33,471 nucleotides of DNA from IMG/VR virus record IMGVR_UViG_3300024219_000013, positions 1 through 33,471 of that record; one strand, 5' to 3'. Of the stretch, positions 14,435 through 31,963 are shown one piece after another. The stretch comes from a virus. Lineage: Duplodnaviria; Caudoviricetes. The position numbers were made by a program, and so were the translations under genes. The notes under the pieces are model-generated. The model was not told the DNA's origin and made no database searches. It was given only the letters and a program-made list of their open reading frames with translations. The stretch's first letter is position 1. Each line of letters starts with the position of its first letter.

Positions 14435-16648
14435 ATGGCTCGTCGCCCCAGAGCCGGTGATGCCGCCATTCTGCGCGAGGCGAAAGACAGATTCGAGCGC
14501 TGTGTCGGCTGGGAAAGCGCATGGCGTGAACGCGCGCTGTTCGACACCAAATTCGCCAACGCAGACCCACACAATATGTGGCAGTGGGACACCTCGGTCA
14601 AAGCGGACCGCGGCTCTCGCCCATGCCTGACCTACAACCAGGTGAGGCAACACAATCTGCAGGTGATCAACGACGCCCGGCAGAATAAGGCGCAGATCAA
14701 GGTCACGCCCACAGGGGGGCAAGCGTCCTACGAGGCCGCGCAGGTGTTCAGCGGCATCATCCGGCGCATCGAGTATCAGAGCAAAGCGGTGGATGCGTAT
14801 TCCACGGCCATCTTCCATCAGGTCGAAAGCGGCATCGGCTACGTGCGCGTCGAAACCGACTACGTGGACAACGACTCATTCGATCTGGATCTGTGGATAC
14901 GCCGCATTGCCGACCCGCGCAGTGTCTACATGGACCCCGACTGCAAACTCTATGACAAGTCAGACGCCAATTTCGCGTTCGTGTTCGAGGATATCCCGCG
15001 CGACCGGTACGAAGAGGAATACGGCACCGAGGACAACGCCGCGCCGGCCACGCTCGACCACACCGATGGCTGGAACGACAAGGACCATGTGCGGATCGCG
15101 GAGTATTGGCGGCGCGGCATCGCCAATAGCAAGATCCACCAGCTCCAGGATGGCACGGTGGTGCGGGATGACGACATCCCGGACGACATCCGAGACCAGA
15201 TCGAGCCGCTTATCGTCAAGACGCGCGAGGTCGCAGAGCCGGAAATCGAGTGGTTCAAACTTGCCGGCGACCGGATCATCGACCGCGAGGAATGGCCGGG
15301 GAAATACATTCCCATCGTGCCGTTTCTGGGCGAGGAAACCGTCATCGACGGCGAGATGGACCGCAAGGGCCACACCAGAAGCCAGATCGACGCCCAGCGT
15401 ATCTACAACTACTGGGCCTCGGCGGCCGTGGAGCAGGTCGCGCTGCAGACCAAATCGCCGTATGTCGCGCGCATCGACGCGATCCAGGGCCGCGAGGAGC
15501 AGTGGGCGACGGCGAACGTCAAGAACTGGTCTGTGCTGGTCTACAACGGCCTCGACGAGCGCGGCCAGCCAATCCCGCCGCCAGCCCGCGAGCCGCCACC
15601 GCAGATGGCGCAGGCGTATATACAAGGGATGACGATTGCGCGGCAGGATCTGATGAGCGTCACCGGCCAGTATCAGGCTGAGCTGGGTATGCCGAGCAAC
15701 GAACGCAGCGGCATTGCCATCCAGCAGCGTCAGCGGCAGGGCGATACCGCGACGTACCATTACATCGACAACCAAGCCAAAGCGATCCGGCAAGTCGGCA
15801 GGATATTGCTCGACCTGATACCGCGGATCTACGACACGCGGCGCGTGGTGATGACGCTTGCCGAGGATGGCGAGGAAAACAAGGTCGTGGTGGCGCCGGA
15901 TGCGCCCGAGGCGCACCAGTTCGTCGGTCCGCCGCCACAGCAGCCAAACACTGACGGTGCTCCGGTGCCGCTGACCGGCGGACAGGCGCAGGAGCTGCAA
16001 GAGAATCCCGACACACCGGATCCGAGCGTCATCTTCAACCCGAATGTGGGCAAATACGACGTCGAGGCGGACGTAGGGCCGGCCTATGGCACGCAGCGCC
16101 AGGAAGCGGCGAATGCGTTTGCGGAGATCATGAAACAGAACCCGGCGGCATTTCAGATCGTCGGCGACCTGTGGGCTGAGAACAGCGATTTCCCGAACGC
16201 CGACGAGTTCGCGCGGCGGATGAAACGGGGCCTGCCGCCGCAATACAAGAGCGGCGTGGATCCGCAGGTGCAGCAGGTGACACAGGCCGCGCAGCAGATG
16301 CAGCAACATGCACAGGAACTGCTGCAGAAGGCCGATGCGGAGATTGCTGGATTGAAGGCGCAGGTGGCGCATCAGAAGGAACTGCTGGGCGACAAATCGC
16401 ACTCGCTCGAGATTGACGACTACAAGGCCGAGACGGACAGGCTAAAGGCGGTCGGCGGCATCGACCCGCTGGCGTTGCAGGTGGTTGTGCGGCAGATGGT
16501 GAGCGATATGCTGCAGACCGAGCTACACCCGCAGCTCCAGCAGCACGCGGCGCAGCAGAGCGAGCTACAGGCGGCGATGATGCCGCCGGCACCGGAAGGC
16601 GCGGCAGGCGCCGCACCGCCATCACAGACGCTCCAGGGGCCGGCATGA
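14435..16648 (+). CDS. P22-like portal protein
   Basis: About 740 aa after terL; 'RPCLTYN', 'WPGKYIPIVP', 'DAQRIYNYW', 'SGIAIQQRQRQGD', 'GKYDV....GP.Y.TQRQEA'; Gln-rich C-terminal coiled coil. Confidence 0.93.
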   Translation: MARRPRAGDAAILREAKDRFERCVGWESAWRERALFDTKFANADPHNMWQWDTSVKADRGSRPCLTYNQVRQHNLQVINDARQNKAQIKVTPTGGQASYEAAQVFSGIIRRIEYQSKAVDAYSTAIFHQVESGIGYVRVETDYVDNDSFDLDLWIRRIADPRSVYMDPDCKLYDKSDANFAFVFEDIPRDRYEEEYGTEDNAAPATLDHTDGWNDKDHVRIAEYWRRGIANSKIHQLQDGTVVRDDDIPDDIRDQIEPLIVKTREVAEPEIEWFKLAGDRIIDREEWPGKYIPIVPFLGEETVIDGEMDRKGHTRSQIDAQRIYNYWASAAVEQVALQTKSPYVARIDAIQGREEQWATANVKNWSVLVYNGLDERGQPIPPPAREPPPQMAQAYIQGMTIARQDLMSVTGQYQAELGMPSNERSGIAIQQRQRQGDTATYHYIDNQAKAIRQVGRILLDLIPRIYDTRRVVMTLAEDGEENKVVVAPDAPEAHQFVGPPPQQPNTDGAPVPLTGGQAQELQENPDTPDPSVIFNPNVGKYDVEADVGPAYGTQRQEAANAFAEIMKQNPAAFQIVGDLWAENSDFPNADEFARRMKRGLPPQYKSGVDPQVQQVTQAAQQMQQHAQELLQKADAEIAGLKAQVAHQKELLGDKSHSLEIDDYKAETDRLKAVGGIDPLALQVVVRQMVSDMLQTELHPQLQQHAAQQSELQAAMMPPAPEGAAGAAPPSQTLQGPA

Positions 16649-16905
16649 CCAACATCAGCGACGAGGTTTGCGAGGAGTTCCGCAGGATCGTCCTGGAAGG
16701 CGTCGAACATCCCAGCCTGCGCAGGATACTGGAGCATCTCATTCATAGAGGTGAGATCCAGAGGGCGTGCATCCTCAAAGATATGTACGCTCCGGGTTTT
16801 GCAGACCGGAAAGCGTTTCAGGAGACGGTGGCTCGCCAATACAACGAGGCTTTCAAGCCACACAGATCGTCGCTGAGCTTCCGTTGGGAACCGCCGTCGC
16901 TGTGA
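16645..16905 (+). CDS. Hypothetical protein
   Basis: ATGA overlap with the portal stop. Confidence 0.55.
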   Translation: MTNISDEVCEEFRRIVLEGVEHPSLRRILEHLIHRGEIQRACILKDMYAPGFADRKAFQETVARQYNEAFKPHRSSLSFRWEPPSL

Positions 16906-17093
16906 GCGACACTGACGACACCGTGCTGTCGCATGCTGAGGCGCTGGCCGAAATCCGCCGCCTGCGCGCTCGCATCCTCGAACTAGAGGCACAGGCCGCC
17001 ATTCAGCGCGGCACCCTGGCACAACCCGAAGAGGACGCCCCGGCCAGCATCACGCACGGCCAAGCGCCATCCGCACCACCACACAACGAGTAA
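16902..17093 (+). CDS. Small coiled-coil hypothetical protein
   Basis: GTGA overlap; 'EALAEIRRLRARILELEAQ'. Confidence 0.6.
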   Translation: MSDTDDTVLSHAEALAEIRRLRARILELEAQAAIQRGTLAQPEEDAPASITHGQAPSAPPHNE

Positions 17094-17096
17094 GCC

Positions 17097-17336
17097 ATGA
17101 GCGCCATAGCCAGGGACAGCAGCGACCCCTATCCGTTTATACCGGTAAGGGTCGTAAAGGGCATGGAGCCGTGTCCGTTCTGCGGCTGTACGGCGCTCAG
17201 GTTCTGGAATGGCAACGTGGGCCAGCAAGGGGAAGAACCGTCCTGGTGCGTGACCTGTAACTACTGCACCGCCGATGGGCCGCCTGCCGCCACGCAGGCA
17301 GATGCAATCGCTGTCTGGAATGAACGCCATGTCTGA
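17097..17336 (+). CDS. Lar-family (restriction alleviation-like) zinc-ribbon protein
   Basis: 'EPCPFCG', 'VTCNYC.A.GP', 'AIAVWNER'. Confidence 0.75.
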   Translation: MSAIARDSSDPYPFIPVRVVKGMEPCPFCGCTALRFWNGNVGQQGEEPSWCVTCNYCTADGPPAATQADAIAVWNERHV

Positions 17337-18066
17337 GACCACCGAAGGCACACCGGCCCCCGAGCCGGAACCCACACCCACGCCAGTAGCAGAGCCAACG
17401 CCGACTCCCGAGCCCGAGGCGCCAGAGCAGACGCCGGAGGACGAGCAGAAAGCCGCGCGGGACAAGGAAGATCGCCGCATCGCGCAGCTACGCGCCCGCC
17501 TTGGCGCAGCAGAGCGCGAGCGTGAGGCACAACGCGCTGAACTTGAGGTGTACCGCCGCCAGGCGCAGCAGCAGGCGCCCACCGAGGAAACGCCCGAGCA
17601 GCAGTATCAACGCGTGCGTGCCCAGATTCGCGGCGAGGTCGAGGCGCAACTCCGTCAGGAGGCGTTCCACGCTCAGGGCAATGCGGCGTTTCCCGACTGG
17701 CGCCAGCGCTGCGACGACCTGATGGCGATGGGCGCGGATGCCGGTCTTGCGCAACTGCTGATCGAGATGCCCGAAGGCGTGCGGGTGGCAGCGTCGCTCG
17801 CCTCGGATCCCGACGCGCTGGAGCGCATTGCCAACCTGCGCACCGAGCGCGCGCGGGCCGTGGCGCTGGGCAAATACGCCGCGACGGTCGAGGACACGCC
17901 GCCGTCACGCCTGGCATCTGCGCCGCGGCAGATCACCCAGGCACCAGCACCGGTGCGTCCGGTGACAGGCCGCGCCAACCCGCAGGTCAACGAATACCGG
18001 CTCACCGCACAGCAGCTCGTGGACAAGTACAGCCGCGAGGCCATGGAAGCGCGCAGAAGCCGCTGA
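17329..18066 (+). CDS. Putative scaffolding protein
   Basis: Pro/Glu-rich N-terminus, coiled coil, basic C-terminus; lies between portal and coat. Confidence 0.75.
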   Translation: MSETTEGTPAPEPEPTPTPVAEPTPTPEPEAPEQTPEDEQKAARDKEDRRIAQLRARLGAAEREREAQRAELEVYRRQAQQQAPTEETPEQQYQRVRAQIRGEVEAQLRQEAFHAQGNAAFPDWRQRCDDLMAMGADAGLAQLLIEMPEGVRVAASLASDPDALERIANLRTERARAVALGKYAATVEDTPPSRLASAPRQITQAPAPVRPVTGRANPQVNEYRLTAQQLVDKYSREAMEARRSR

Positions 18067-18491
18067 TGGCGCTTAGGTGGGTGCGGCGGTTCTGGAGATG
18101 GCTGCGACCGGAGCCGCCTCATCATGTCGAGTTCAGCTTCAACCGCTCCGAACTGGCGCTGAGCATTGAGGACTTTTCCAGACAGTATATTGATCCAGCC
18201 ATCGAGATCATGGCCAAGGAACTCGCAGCAAGCCTTTCGATTTCTGAGCCTCTGCCGTGGCACAAACGGGCGGTGGTCGCCGTCCGTCTGCTGTGGCGCT
18301 GGTGGTTTCCTGGGAAACCAAAACCTCGCGAGTTAACCGCCAATGACATTACAGCCAAGGCGTTGGTTATCCTTCACCAGAAGTACAACGTCATTGGCTC
18401 TATGAAGGGCGGCGCGAAAGTTGGCGATGCGATCCGCGTTCGGATGCCCGTTGGATACACGATCCACAACGGCGCAAGACCGCCAGACTAG
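18066..18491 (+). CDS. Permuted partial paralogue of the coat protein with Trp/Arg-rich segments
   Basis: Residues 20-50 align to coat 85-115 and residues 90-133 align to coat 8-60; TGATG coupling to the scaffold gene. Confidence 0.8.
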   Translation: MALRWVRRFWRWLRPEPPHHVEFSFNRSELALSIEDFSRQYIDPAIEIMAKELAASLSISEPLPWHKRAVVAVRLLWRWWFPGKPKPRELTANDITAKALVILHQKYNVIGSMKGGAKVGDAIRVRMPVGYTIHNGARPPD

Positions 18492-18681
18492 CCGTGCCTA
18501 ACCGGTAGCGGATCGGTCAACACCGCGCAGCGTGCCGACACGGGCAGCGGGCCGTAACACCGCGTGACGTGCCTCCACCGTCTGTCAGCGCGGCTATCCC
18601 TCTCATTGCGACAACGGCTTGAACCGGCGCCCTGCATCCACGCGGGCGCCTTCCCTCAATCTGTTGTCGAGGAGCAGGGCA

Positions 18682-19869
18682 ATGCCCGCCACCAACACGC
18701 TACTCACCATCGATATGATCACCGCAAAGGCGCTGGTCATCCTCCATCAAAAATGTAACATAATCGGATCGGTGAATAGGCAATATGATGACAGTTTCGC
18801 AAATAGTGGCGCTAAAATCGGCACCACGCTGCGCATCAGACTGCCGGTGCAATACACCGTCTCCACCACCCCGGCACTCTCGCTGCAAAACACCGTCGAG
18901 CAATACGTCAGCCTGCCGATCACCAACCAGTACCACGCCGACTTCAGCTTCAGCAGCGCTGAGCTAACGCTGAGCATCGACGACTTCTCGGCACGCTACA
19001 TCGAGCCGGCCATCGCCACGCTCGCCGCACGCATGGAAGCCGATTTCGTCAATCAGATGTGGCCGAAAGTGTGGAACCAGGTCGGCACCGCCGCATCGCC
19101 GATGCCATACAAAACCATCCTCCAGGCTCGCAAGCTGCTGCTCGACAACCTCACGCCGCAGTCAAAGCAATGGTTGTTGCGCATTAACACGCAGGACAAC
19201 GTGGATCTGGTCGATACCCTGAAGGGGCTGTTCCAGAGCCAGGAGCAGATCCGGCGCCAATACATCGATGGCGTGATGGGGCTGAGCGGTGGCTTCGAGT
19301 GGGCCGAGAATACCCACCTCACCACACAGACCCGCGGCGCTGAGGCCGGCTACCTCGTTAGCCCGGCATCACAGACCGGCGCCACACTCGCCGTCATCAC
19401 CGGCACCGGCGCAGGCAACGCGGGCGACGTGTTCACCATCACCGGCGTCTATCGCGTGCATCCCGAAACCAAGGTGAACACGGGCGTCCTGCAGCAGTTC
19501 ACGCTGACCTCGGCTTATGCTGGAGGTGCAGGCAACATGGCGATCAGCCCCGCTATCGTCACGTCAGGCCCGACGCAGAACGTCAGCGCCAGCCCGGCCA
19601 ACAACGCACCGATTACCTTCGCCAATACCGCCAGCGTCGCGACCGGGCTGAGTTTAGCATACCACCCAGATGCTTTTACATTCGCCACTGCTGACCTTGT
19701 CATGCCCGGAGGTGTGGACATGGCCTCGCGTGTGGTGAAGGACGGTATCTCCATGAGGGCTGTGCGTCAATATAGCATATCAGACGACACTTTCCCAATC
19801 CGCATAGATGTCTTGTGGGGCTGCGCCGCGTTACGGCCCCAGCTCGCGTGTCGGTTGGTTGCTAATTAG
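18682..19869 (+). CDS. Major capsid protein, P22 coat family
   Basis: 'NTLLTIDMIT..AL..L', 'RQYDDSFA..GAKIG.TLRIRLP', 'FSARYIEPA', 'AGDVFTI.GV..V.P.TK', 'RIDVLWG...LRP'; GAGGAG RBS. Confidence 0.93.
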   Translation: MPATNTLLTIDMITAKALVILHQKCNIIGSVNRQYDDSFANSGAKIGTTLRIRLPVQYTVSTTPALSLQNTVEQYVSLPITNQYHADFSFSSAELTLSIDDFSARYIEPAIATLAARMEADFVNQMWPKVWNQVGTAASPMPYKTILQARKLLLDNLTPQSKQWLLRINTQDNVDLVDTLKGLFQSQEQIRRQYIDGVMGLSGGFEWAENTHLTTQTRGAEAGYLVSPASQTGATLAVITGTGAGNAGDVFTITGVYRVHPETKVNTGVLQQFTLTSAYAGGAGNMAISPAIVTSGPTQNVSASPANNAPITFANTASVATGLSLAYHPDAFTFATADLVMPGGVDMASRVVKDGISMRAVRQYSISDDTFPIRIDVLWGCAALRPQLACRLVAN

Positions 19870-19871
19870 GA

Positions 19872-19930
19872 TTGCTGTTTGCTACTAGGGTAGTTATCAT
19901 GCTCCTTCCTTAAAACAGGAGGGAGCATGA
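19872..19930 (+). promoter_or_regulatory. Candidate sigma70 promoter overlapping an RBS-sequestering hairpin
   Basis: TTGCTG-17bp-TATCAT (19872-19900); 14-bp stem 19897-19910 / 19917-19930 covering AGGAGG and the ATG. Confidence 0.7.
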
Positions 19931-20511
19931 CCTGCATAGTCGAGGGGTGCGGCGCAACTGCGCGAGGGCATGGCTATTGCCTGCGGCACTACACACAGTG
20001 GCGGCGGCACGGTGATCCGCTTCATCAGGAACGGCGCTATTATAAAGGGATGCCGGCAGAAGAGCGGTTCAAAGCCTATGTCCAGAAGGGATTGGGACCG
20101 AAAGCATGCTGGGAATGGACGGGAGGGAAAATGTCCACTGGCTATGGGATGTTTCATCCGACGCCCAGGCAATCGATACTCGCGCATCGCTACGCCTATG
20201 AACAACATCGTGGGCCAATTCCGGCAGGCCAATTTATCTTGCATCACTGCGATAATCGGTCCTGCGTCAATCCTAGGCATTTGTTCTGCGGCGACCAGCA
20301 AGCGAATGTCGATGACATGATCAATAAAGGCCGTGATCGTAAGCAAGGCCGATCTGGCGCCATGAACCACCAAGCCAGAATTACCGAGGAGATTGTGCGA
20401 AAAATTCGCGCATCGTCGATGACCGCCAAGATCCTGGCTAAACGGTATGGGGTGTCAGTGTCCCTGGTCTATGCCGTCAAGCAACGCCGCCTTTGGCAAC
20501 ACATCGAGTAG
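19927..20511 (+). CDS. Free-standing HNH endonuclease
   Basis: 'CWEWTG....GYG', 'AHRYAYE...GPIP', 'LHHCDNRSCVNPRHL..G....N..DM..KGR'; N-terminal CxxxxC/CxxH module; C-terminal HTH. Confidence 0.92.
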   Translation: MTCIVEGCGATARGHGYCLRHYTQWRRHGDPLHQERRYYKGMPAEERFKAYVQKGLGPKACWEWTGGKMSTGYGMFHPTPRQSILAHRYAYEQHRGPIPAGQFILHHCDNRSCVNPRHLFCGDQQANVDDMINKGRDRKQGRSGAMNHQARITEEIVRKIRASSMTAKILAKRYGVSVSLVYAVKQRRLWQHIE

Positions 20512-30608: not shown

Positions 30609-30926
30609 ATGGAACTCGTATACACGAACGTAGAGCAGACCTCGATCCAGGCGACGCTCGACGATAAGGAGACGCTTGGCAATCTCACCGGCCCCCGCGT
30701 GTTTTTCGTGCCAGTGGACGAAAGCAACGCCGAATACGCCGAGATCCTCGCCGCCGGCATGAAGGTCGAGGAATACGTGGCGCCGACACCGCCACCGCCG
30801 ACGCCTGTGGATCTGCCTCCAGTGATGCCCACCGAGCCGCAGCAGGCCGCACCCAAGGCGTATGTGGACACAGAAATCGCGGCACTCGCGGCTCGCCTCG
30901 AGGCGCTGGAGGCCAGGCTCGGGTGA
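30609..30926 (+). CDS. Putative tail-fibre assembly/chaperone protein
   Basis: Directly after the fibre gene; 'VPVDESNAEYAEI' motif; GAGG RBS. Confidence 0.55.
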   Translation: MELVYTNVEQTSIQATLDDKETLGNLTGPRVFFVPVDESNAEYAEILAAGMKVEEYVAPTPPPPTPVDLPPVMPTEPQQAAPKAYVDTEIAALAARLEALEARLG

Positions 30927-31963
30927 CACCGCCTTTCGTGGTGCTCAGCCTGCCGCGCAGCCGGTCGGCTTGGTTGGCACACTGGCTGGCCGGTGTGGCG
31001 CAGATGCCAGTCGGGCACGACCTGGCTATCGAGGCGGACAGCATCGATCAGTGGCTCGGCCAGGTGGCGCGCGGCTATCGCGGAACGTGCGAGACTGGTG
31101 CGGTTGAGGTGTGGCCTATCCTACGCCGTTCAATCCCGACCTGCCGCATCATAACCGTGCATCGGCCACTGGGGGCGGTGTGCGCCTCACTGAGGGCGGC
31201 TGGCTATGAGCCGCCTATGGACGACCTGACACGTCGGAGCGCCGCCCTTGAGCGTCTGGCGGGGCAGGCTGGGGTGATGGCGTTCCCGTTCGATGCACTG
31301 AACGACCCGCGCTGGTGCGCCGTGCTGCAGGAGCATGCGCTAGGAATGCCGTTCGACTGGCCGACGTGGCGCGAGGCGTCGGATCTCAACGTGCAAGTAA
31401 AGCGGGACGTGCGATTGGCCCGGCTGGCCGAGCGTCGTCCGCAGATCGAGCGACTTCGTGCTGAGTTGATTGACCGCCTGGCGGAGCACCGGCCGTTCGT
31501 GTCAGTCGGTGAGGAACGGTGGGCGGATGTGGCCGACGAATGCGAGCGTCTCGGTGCTGTGCATCATGCCGAGGCAACGGCTGGTGTTGAGGGCGCATTC
31601 CGGCTCAATCGCGAAGCTATGCAGCAGCTTGCTGATGCCGGGTTATGGCGGGTGTTTGTGGCGCGCGTCGATGGGACGCTGGCCGGTTATTGCTGCTGGA
31701 CGCACGAGACAAACCTGGAGGCGGCTGCGCCGAAGACCATGGCGCATGGGCCGTTCTATGTGTCGCCTGAGTATGCACGTCACAAGCTGGGCATGGGACT
31801 CCTGCGTGCAGCCAGCGATGTGCTGACGGCGGAGGGCTACCGGGTGTTGCGGCTGCATCACACGATGCACGGGCGTGGAGCGCGGGCTGGGCGGCTCTAC
31901 GAGGCGTTGGGGGCGGTCGAGTATCAGCGTGAATATATCTGGAGGGTAGGGGCAGATGCCTAG
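30923..31963 (+). CDS. Sulfotransferase/P-loop-like domain fused to a GNAT acetyltransferase
   Basis: N-terminal 'FVVLSLPRSRSAWLAHWL...HD'; C-terminal 'FVARVDG.LAGY', 'FYVSPEY....LG..LL', 'LYEALG'. Confidence 0.7.
   Translation: MTPPFVVLSLPRSRSAWLAHWLAGVAQMPVGHDLAIEADSIDQWLGQVARGYRGTCETGAVEVWPILRRSIPTCRIITVHRPLGAVCASLRAAGYEPPMDDLTRRSAALERLAGQAGVMAFPFDALNDPRWCAVLQEHALGMPFDWPTWREASDLNVQVKRDVRLARLAERRPQIERLRAELIDRLAEHRPFVSVGEERWADVADECERLGAVHHAEATAGVEGAFRLNREAMQQLADAGLWRVFVARVDGTLAGYCCWTHETNLEAAAPKTMAHGPFYVSPEYARHKLGMGLLRAASDVLTAEGYRVLRLHHTMHGRGARAGRLYEALGAVEYQREYIWRVGADA

Follow-up and report, generated by a model that had tools for sequence, protein, structure and literature searches.

Conserved virion proteins are difficult for phages to mutate, which makes them targets of antiphage defences. 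Thirteen further Avs families recognise core proteins of phages in their monomeric form (bioRxiv 10.64898/2026.01.04.697583), the SaPI (Staphylococcus aureus pathogenicity island) protein CpmB employs the capsid-protein site of the scaffold, leaving the helper phage no mutational escape (PMC5644958), and DSAD1 blocks a sensor by occupying its trigger's site (PMC11087589). In phage P22 the scaffold C-terminus binds coat N-arm residues D14, E15 and E18 and residue R101, while N-arm residues 2–30 bind scaffold (PMC9965877). We analysed a 33.5-kb linear virus record with a P22-like podophage gene set (IMGVR_UViG_3300024219_000013; all 33 471 nucleotides are called the window), in which a small gene between the scaffold and coat genes encodes rearranged pieces of the coat. 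We call its product the mini-coat, or mini.

The pieces cover about 80 of the 395 coat residues, and only the segments 8–31, 43–60 and 84–120. BLAST aligns mini residues 19–55 with coat 84–120 (piece A; E 1e-10) and residues 90–133 with coat 8–60 (E 8e-14), the latter across a 9-residue gap that separates piece B from piece C (Table 1). An original prediction, made from the letters alone, had matched mini 20–50 to coat 85–115 at 18 of 31 positions, 90–112 to 8–30 at 18 of 23 and 116–133 to 43–60 at 10 of 18, and had noted that 9 of the 12 codons of an identical 12-mer differ synonymously; all of these counts are exact. It had also described a similar Trp/Arg-rich segment before each fragment. 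The compositions are alike, but there are only two segments for three pieces, and the two give no significant mutual alignment (none by self-BLAST; tblastn E 3.3) that would mark them as duplicates. Its word 'permuted' does not hold up as well. There are two separate pieces, each with its own leader, and single-module forms and both piece orders exist, unlike a circular permutation. The sequence is best read as two 'leader plus coat piece' modules fused in tandem, and the reversed order would follow from that fusion.

A Pfam and PHROG search of the mini (E cut-off 0.01) gave no family and no match to PF11651, the P22-type coat family; the mini has homology to the N-arm and spine helix of that family and lacks its full fold. 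The ESM Atlas gave no usable feature match for it, and structure matches had template modelling (TM) scores of at most 0.33. A search against 16 large window proteins found no other gene that carries protein fragments. The coat itself models well, with a predicted local distance difference test (pLDDT) score of 82, strand E75–91, helices H92–96 and H99–129, a helix at 10–24 and a strand at 49–53, and Foldseek matches the model to the Sf6, CUS-3 and P22 coats (TM 0.70–0.77). A profile alignment to the P22 coat begins at profile position 102 against P22 residue 101, an offset that would place the equivalent of R101 at about residue 104 of the window coat, inside piece A. Because the N-arm and this equivalent both fall within the pieces, the copied set is likely the inner, scaffold-binding face of the coat.

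The hydrophobic moment of leader 1 (0.91) exceeds the 99.9th percentile (0.69) of 11-mers in the 16 window proteins, its net charge is +4, and W5, R7 and R8 are invariant in all five aligned minis. Leader 2 carries a net charge of +6 with a weaker moment (0.47), and P64–R68, R74, L76 and W80 are invariant in the same five. No transmembrane segment was found in the mini, whose highest 19-residue Kyte-Doolittle mean is 0.86, so it does not resemble an integral-membrane, holin-like protein. Nor does it look like a substrate of twin-arginine translocation (Tat): leader 1 does have an invariant RR, but the window protein has no Tat motif spacing and no hydrophobic stretch, and the Tat models TIGR01409 and PF10518 do not match it. 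The mini therefore likely stays on the cytoplasmic side. A sister protein with a Tat-type leader (P0043) itself reaches only E 0.11 against these models, below the cut-off.

The gene is an optional insertion. In three of four runs single contigs cover the whole stretch, with one difference each, and in X1 and X2 of four further runs they span the mini gene; some of the former runs may be the source sample, which is possibly among the latter too. Two other runs each contain a contig that continues directly at 18486 after the scaffold stop, with 420–421 bases skipped and a joint that omits 18064–18486. One relative (L009), with a coat 97% identical and the same flanks, has the scaffold-to-coat intergenic leader directly after the scaffold gene and no mini. 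The skipping joints and this mini-less locus, with the same intergenic leader, show that the gene is a clean optional insertion of about 420 bp that takes its stop codon from pre-existing sequence; it is not a misassembly, a doubt that the original prediction had left for the reads to settle. Such a gene is missing from most of 71 loci that have scaffold and coat, and a metagenome scan returned only identical copies and one weak match (5 of 269 stretches). No RNA sequencing run is listed among the 24 runs in our sequencing-run search.

It is also an intact gene under purifying selection. A check that the original prediction had suggested finds homologues of the same architecture beside coat genes: intact copies occupy the same slot in four viral contigs at 100, 100, 83 and 82% identity. 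Pairwise ratios of nonsynonymous to synonymous change (dN/dS), obtained by simple counting from three alleles of one lineage (the window, L003 and L004), are 0.33, 0.30 and 0.28 (Fisher p 4e-4, 9e-5 and 9e-5), against 0.03–0.09 for the coat; the piece A segment alone gives 0.15–0.23. Between a mini and its cognate coat, synonymous sites are saturated (proportion differing 0.70–0.75) while the nonsynonymous proportion is 0.23–0.24. Two further proteins (P0004 and P0005), known here from proteins alone, keep the whole architecture at 48% identity together with the Trp/Arg residues of both leaders, and one excluded candidate (P0003) was a low-complexity repeat. That the gene is non-functional recombination debris, or an assembly artefact, is a very improbable and largely refuted idea: the missing confident fold and the patchy occurrence would suit it, but the frame is intact in all homologues found, down to 48% identity, indels between them are in-frame only, dN/dS is about 0.3 and contigs span the gene. 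The earlier judgement that this is a selected protein rather than duplication debris thus stands.

Of 80 coat-relative loci, four have the tandem gene and five have single-module genes (two distinct sequences) in which a basic or amphipathic helix precedes B/C, in head operons; one locus (L035) carries two minis and another (L073) a weak one. P0033, a single Trp/Arg helix followed by B/C, is much like the second half of P0005. A motif scan added L114, where a twin-arginine-type leader precedes B/C between terminase and portal. A search with this protein gave 278 matches; among the 120 listed, an RRxF leader is present in 115, of which 54 also carry a P22-type coat piece; none of 1200 shuffles gave a match. 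The other 61 of the 115 show no detectable P22-type coat piece, and in other class members the pieces match a different capsid family (P0178, E 3.6e-11) or, weakly, tail proteins. Piece A precedes B/C in P0102 as in the window, A precedes C in P0148 and P0150, and P0043 has the natural order. One genome (G002) holds both leader types. Because the pieces, the decay of the F-loop and the A-then-B order of P0102 are the same, and both leaders occur in one genome, we assign the window mini, on sequence evidence, to a wide class with interchangeable leaders in which the Trp/Arg-helix form is linked to the far larger Tat-leader family. The class, which consists of small optional genes with a basic or export-type leader and diverged virion-protein pieces, appears undescribed. 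In G003 and G004 the first ~150 coat residues shown are the same, yet the slot holds different minis, which suggests repeated gain. Six genome loci had no mini within 5 kb of the coat, a viral scan with P0033 returned coats only (21 loci), and the best ESM Atlas scores of a Tat-leader sister (0.86–0.88) are to unnamed clusters and serve as leads only. As separate observations, a 92-residue open reading frame (ORF) in the scaffold-to-coat gap of L036 and L038 has a short stretch like the start of piece A that the coat profile does not detect, and the Tat-leader protein at L239 1300–1779 (G002) amounts to a pared-down P-domain, in which a helix like that of the N-arm accompanies piece A and the C-terminal strands of the P-domain.

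Conservation was compared with 83 dereplicated coats (of 155). The match to the coat consensus is 0.63 in helix-leader and 0.62 in Tat-leader minis for the N-arm helix (coats 0.76), and 0.59 and 0.61 for the strand (coats 0.72). For the F-loop, the best conserved of these segments in coats (0.79), it falls to 0.28 and 0.29. None of 80 coats has a deletion of at least 5 residues, whereas 7 of 10 helix-leader minis and 5 of 25 with a Tat leader do. With the F-loop decayed and deleted in this way, a mini is unlikely to be a shell subunit. At the same time helix-leader pieces resemble their own phage's coat, as first proposed: by column scoring, which replaced a noisy summed-BLAST ranking, only 3, 0, 1, 0, 4 and 8 of 80 panel coats score higher than the own coat in six of seven minis.

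These features weigh differently on four functional readings. The pieces could be a weapon against competing phages, the N-arm and spine start binding the scaffold (or coat) of related phages and stranding it at the membrane. Both P22 scaffold-contact sites are copied (D14/E15/E18 of the N-arm and, by the offset above, R101; PMC9965877), scaffold C-termini are basic, and minis are more acidic than coats: N-arm column 11 is acidic in 7 of 10 and 38 of 47 minis against 24 of 80 coats, and column 12 in 5 of 10 and 13 of 47 against 5 of 80, although the sequences are related and not independent and the p-values come out too small. The Tat-leader mini of L239 also has another N-arm type than its own phage's coat. 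But a gene in the late head operon that overlaps the scaffold gene would strike its own phage's assembly first, the pieces are closest to the own coat, and no sigma-70-like promoter on the mini strand, by a weak test, suggests lysogenic expression. We consider the weapon unlikely; a mini that did bind scaffold would be a natural minimal inhibitor of P22-type head assembly. A complex prediction of the mini with the scaffold C-terminus (45 residues, 37-row alignment) scored 0.00, a value that speaks neither for nor against such binding.

The same surface could serve the phage itself, if the mini bound its own scaffold or portal and tethered or timed procapsid nucleation at the inner membrane, or buffered spare scaffold. 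The position and the start/stop overlap between scaffold and coat, the self-likeness and the copied scaffold-binding face would all suit such a helper. However, the gene is absent in most close relatives, including L009 with its 97% identical coat, it evolves about six times faster than the coat at the protein level (dN/dS 0.3 vs 0.05), and class members carry unrelated pieces; we rate this improbable. About as improbable, or slightly more so, is that the membrane-active Trp/Arg helices are the working part (in lysis timing, exclusion or as a small toxin) and that the coat pieces are recycled soluble helical spacers. Conservation of the helices equals or exceeds that of the pieces, with 0–1 amino-acid changes in leader 1 between close homologues, and the 61 listed Tat-leader proteins without a P22-type piece point the same way, as does the tie between invariant columns in the five tandem minis and coat-conserved columns, which is weak and not significant (p 0.076). 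Against this, one set of coat segments is found repeatedly after leaders that are unrelated, specific motifs survive the decay of the loop between them, and the likeness to coat persists at synonymous saturation.

Of the three jobs that the original prediction had proposed, we put the decoy first, at somewhat less than an even chance: a decoy, tethered to the membrane, for proteins of host, prophage or satellite origin that recognise unassembled coat. The mini would be co-expressed with scaffold and coat from the late operon, and its basic Trp/Arg helices would bind the membrane surface. The N-arm helix, the spine-helix start and the adjacent strand would display the inner scaffold-binding face, which the phage cannot mutate, on a protein unlikely to join the shell. 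Proteins that bind the pieces would be kept at the membrane, away from the real coat, and so be neutralised; Tat-leader relatives might achieve the same by export. The support is indirect: the gene is optional and repeatedly gained, its pieces resemble the own phage's coat, and the class carries varied cargo, a pattern that would fit one narrow assembly role poorly and mimicry of conserved virion proteins well. As precedents, CpmB shows that parasites do attack the scaffold-binding site, and DSAD1 that blocking a sensor's trigger site works. A Lar-like restriction-alleviation gene just upstream, in the same operon, was also counted in favour of the decoy.

Several points weigh against the decoy. 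No sensor of the N-arm or of the spine start turned up in the literature examined. Avs7, 8 and 10 bind the capsid A-domain through a large folded surface (10.64898/2026.01.04.697583), and the A-domain is covered by no mini, though partly through search bias. In Thoeris, sensing relies on residues of the E-loop and the P-loop (PMC12578639), and the mini lacks the E-loop tip (coat 61–80). Since the former need a folded A-domain and the latter the E- or P-loop, the target would be a protein that interferes with assembly or a sensor not yet described. A mimic that is faithful might also set a sensor off instead of blocking it. AlphaFold2 gives the mini no confident fold (pLDDT 43; a helix at 2–12 in the low-confidence model), and binding of the helices to the membrane surface is predicted only. 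Synonymous divergence is about 0.7 in piece A and about 0.2 in the rest of the mini, a hint that recombination with coat-like donors may lower the dN/dS of the mini and weaken the selection test. Likeness to the own coat also has limits. In G005, the seventh helix-leader mini, 45 of 80 panel coats outscore the own coat, on 14 columns; in the three Tat-leader minis tested 13 of 83, 16 of 80 and 54 of 79 do, which is weak or no tracking. The panel is rich in near relatives, and the window, L003 and L004 are one lineage. The non-significant column test (p 0.076) counts here as well.

A broader idea, which we think rather unlikely as a whole, is a modular and repeatedly invented counter-immunity platform, in which copies of unmutable surfaces of the own virion are joined to a 'removal tag': a Tat leader would drag the bound defence protein from the cytoplasm, and amphipathic helices would pin it to the membrane. 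With the same pieces found behind a helix that is not export-like, the class can probably do without Tat export, and what its members have in common may be removal to the membrane. If the platform is real, the copied pieces would map virion surfaces seen by bacterial or parasite sensors and would point to an unknown sensor class for the capsid N-arm and spine face. Tethered copies would be a general answer to defences aimed at conserved virion proteins, and each class member would serve, as it is, as bait in a search for new sensors.

Table 1. Features of the mini-coat locus, in window coordinates
Feature	Coordinates	Strand	Remarks
Head/tail gene order			terminase 12391, portal 14420, scaffold 17329, coat 18682, then adaptor, head closure, tail genes
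Scaffolding protein gene	17329..18066	+	phrog_8865, E 5.5e-13; stop overlaps mini start; basic C-terminus
Mini-coat gene, 141 aa	18066..18491	+	ORF; optional ~420-bp insertion at scaffold stop codon
Leader 1, residues 1–18	18066..18119	+	Trp/Arg amphipathic helix and Pro linker; predicted membrane-surface anchor
Piece A, residues 19–55 = coat 84–120	18120..18230	+	P-domain strand, short helix, first 21 residues of spine helix
Leader 2, residues 62–89	18249..18332	+	basic Trp-rich helix with Pro linkers
Piece B, residues 90–113 = coat 8–31	18333..18404	+	N-arm helix; coat helix 10–24
Piece C, residues 116–133 = coat 43–60	18411..18464	+	strand after F-loop (coat 49–53); preceded by 9-residue F-loop deletion
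Ancestral scaffold-to-coat intergenic leader	18492..18681	+	same sequence right after scaffold gene in mini-less L009; provides mini stop codon (CTAG)
P22-type major coat protein, 395 aa	18682..19869	+	PF11651, E 9.5e-32; source family of pieces

In the window, L001, L003 and L004 the stop codon of the scaffold gene and the start codon of the mini gene overlap in the sequence TGATG. The translational coupling to the scaffold gene claimed earlier is inferred from this geometry, while the overlap itself is seen. Coats 60–70% identical to that of the window occur in genome matches, four of six of them labelled Acetobacteraceae or Rhodopila and one in a 3-Mb contig, so the host is probably a soil alphaproteobacterium, and relatives of the phage can probably be prophages.

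The portal-to-scaffold slot is an accessory hotspot, which holds the Lar-like gene in the window (16645–17336) and unrelated genes of 224–590 residues in relatives (L003 3392–4066, L004 2822–4036, L035 464–2236), with a ~63-residue gene conserved just before scaffold. The intergenic leader (18492–18681) and the region upstream of the coat in L004, L009, L011, L020, L024 and L033 contain GC-rich repeats of ~25–45 bases, whose copy number differs between relatives. The region folds better than shuffles (z -2.7) and is possibly a structured leader RNA; an Rfam scan of the window gave no match. Between the window coat (18682–19869) and that of L001 (5617–6801) ~27% of synonymous sites and one amino acid differ, although the two mini genes have the same DNA sequence, which suggests that coat alleles recombine between near-identical phages. 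Directly after the coat lies an HNH endonuclease gene (19927–20511), present in L002 and absent at that place in L001, L003 and L004, and therefore apparently mobile. In L032, L070, L234 (G001) and L310 the coat gene is broken at codon 27–34, right after the N-arm, by inserts of ~0.7–0.9 kb, a recurrent insertion site near the end of piece B; a group I intron was confirmed in one of the four (L310). Short coat N-terminal ORFs in these four loci and in L192, L207 and L212, and the frameshifted L228, were rejected as minis, being interrupted or cut coat genes. Elsewhere in the window, a 239-residue phage gene (10853–11572) ends in a PEP-CTERM sorting motif (E 1.6e-6), which is unusual for a phage, and a 346-residue gene (30923–31963) combining a hydrolase-like N-terminal part with a GNAT acetyltransferase adjoins a DNA-ejection gene.

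As the original prediction had supposed, no described equivalent was found: the full-text literature searched, which covers few subscription papers, and the available parts of the reviews PMC12409349 and PMC13728456 describe no phage mini-proteins made of coat pieces. The closest relatives are P22-type coats (PF11651; P22 gp5, Sf6 gp5, CUS-3), to whose N-arm, post-F-loop strand and P-domain strand with spine start the pieces are homologous. Compared with these the mini is without the A-domain, I-domain, E-loop tip and C-terminal P-domain sheet, has its segments in reversed order and adds basic helices. Sister minis share the RRxF leader and hydrophobic stretch of Tat signal peptides (TIGR01409, PF10518), for which hitchhiker export is described (PMC4273604). 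Interference proteins sit in a satellite or prophage defence slot and act on another phage, whereas the mini lies in its own phage's head operon, between scaffold and coat. Ccm is a near-complete HK97-fold subunit. As an accessory capsid-protein homologue of cos-type SaPIs that alters head assembly (PMC8569155, PMC5052747), it is satellite-encoded and redirects the helper's shell, while the mini consists of short pieces without shell-forming domains. SaPI1 CpmB attaches next to the N-arm at the site of the scaffold (PMC5644958), on the face that the mini copies, and Tai systems are prophage proteins directed against virion assembly and have a lytic-cycle counter-defence gene (PMC11364771); proteins of this kind are candidate targets of the mini. 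These mimic scaffold or block tails, and the available text describes none as a coat fragment with a leader. DSAD1, the DSR2 inhibitor (PMC11087589), is a small phage protein that sits in a sensor site meant for a structural protein, as the proposed decoy would, while the sensor of the mini is only hypothetical and its pieces are plain coat homologues behind a membrane-type leader. Standing outside the coat family, the Tat substrates and the satellite interference proteins, the design of the mini, for which we propose a decoy function, appears to be new in kind.
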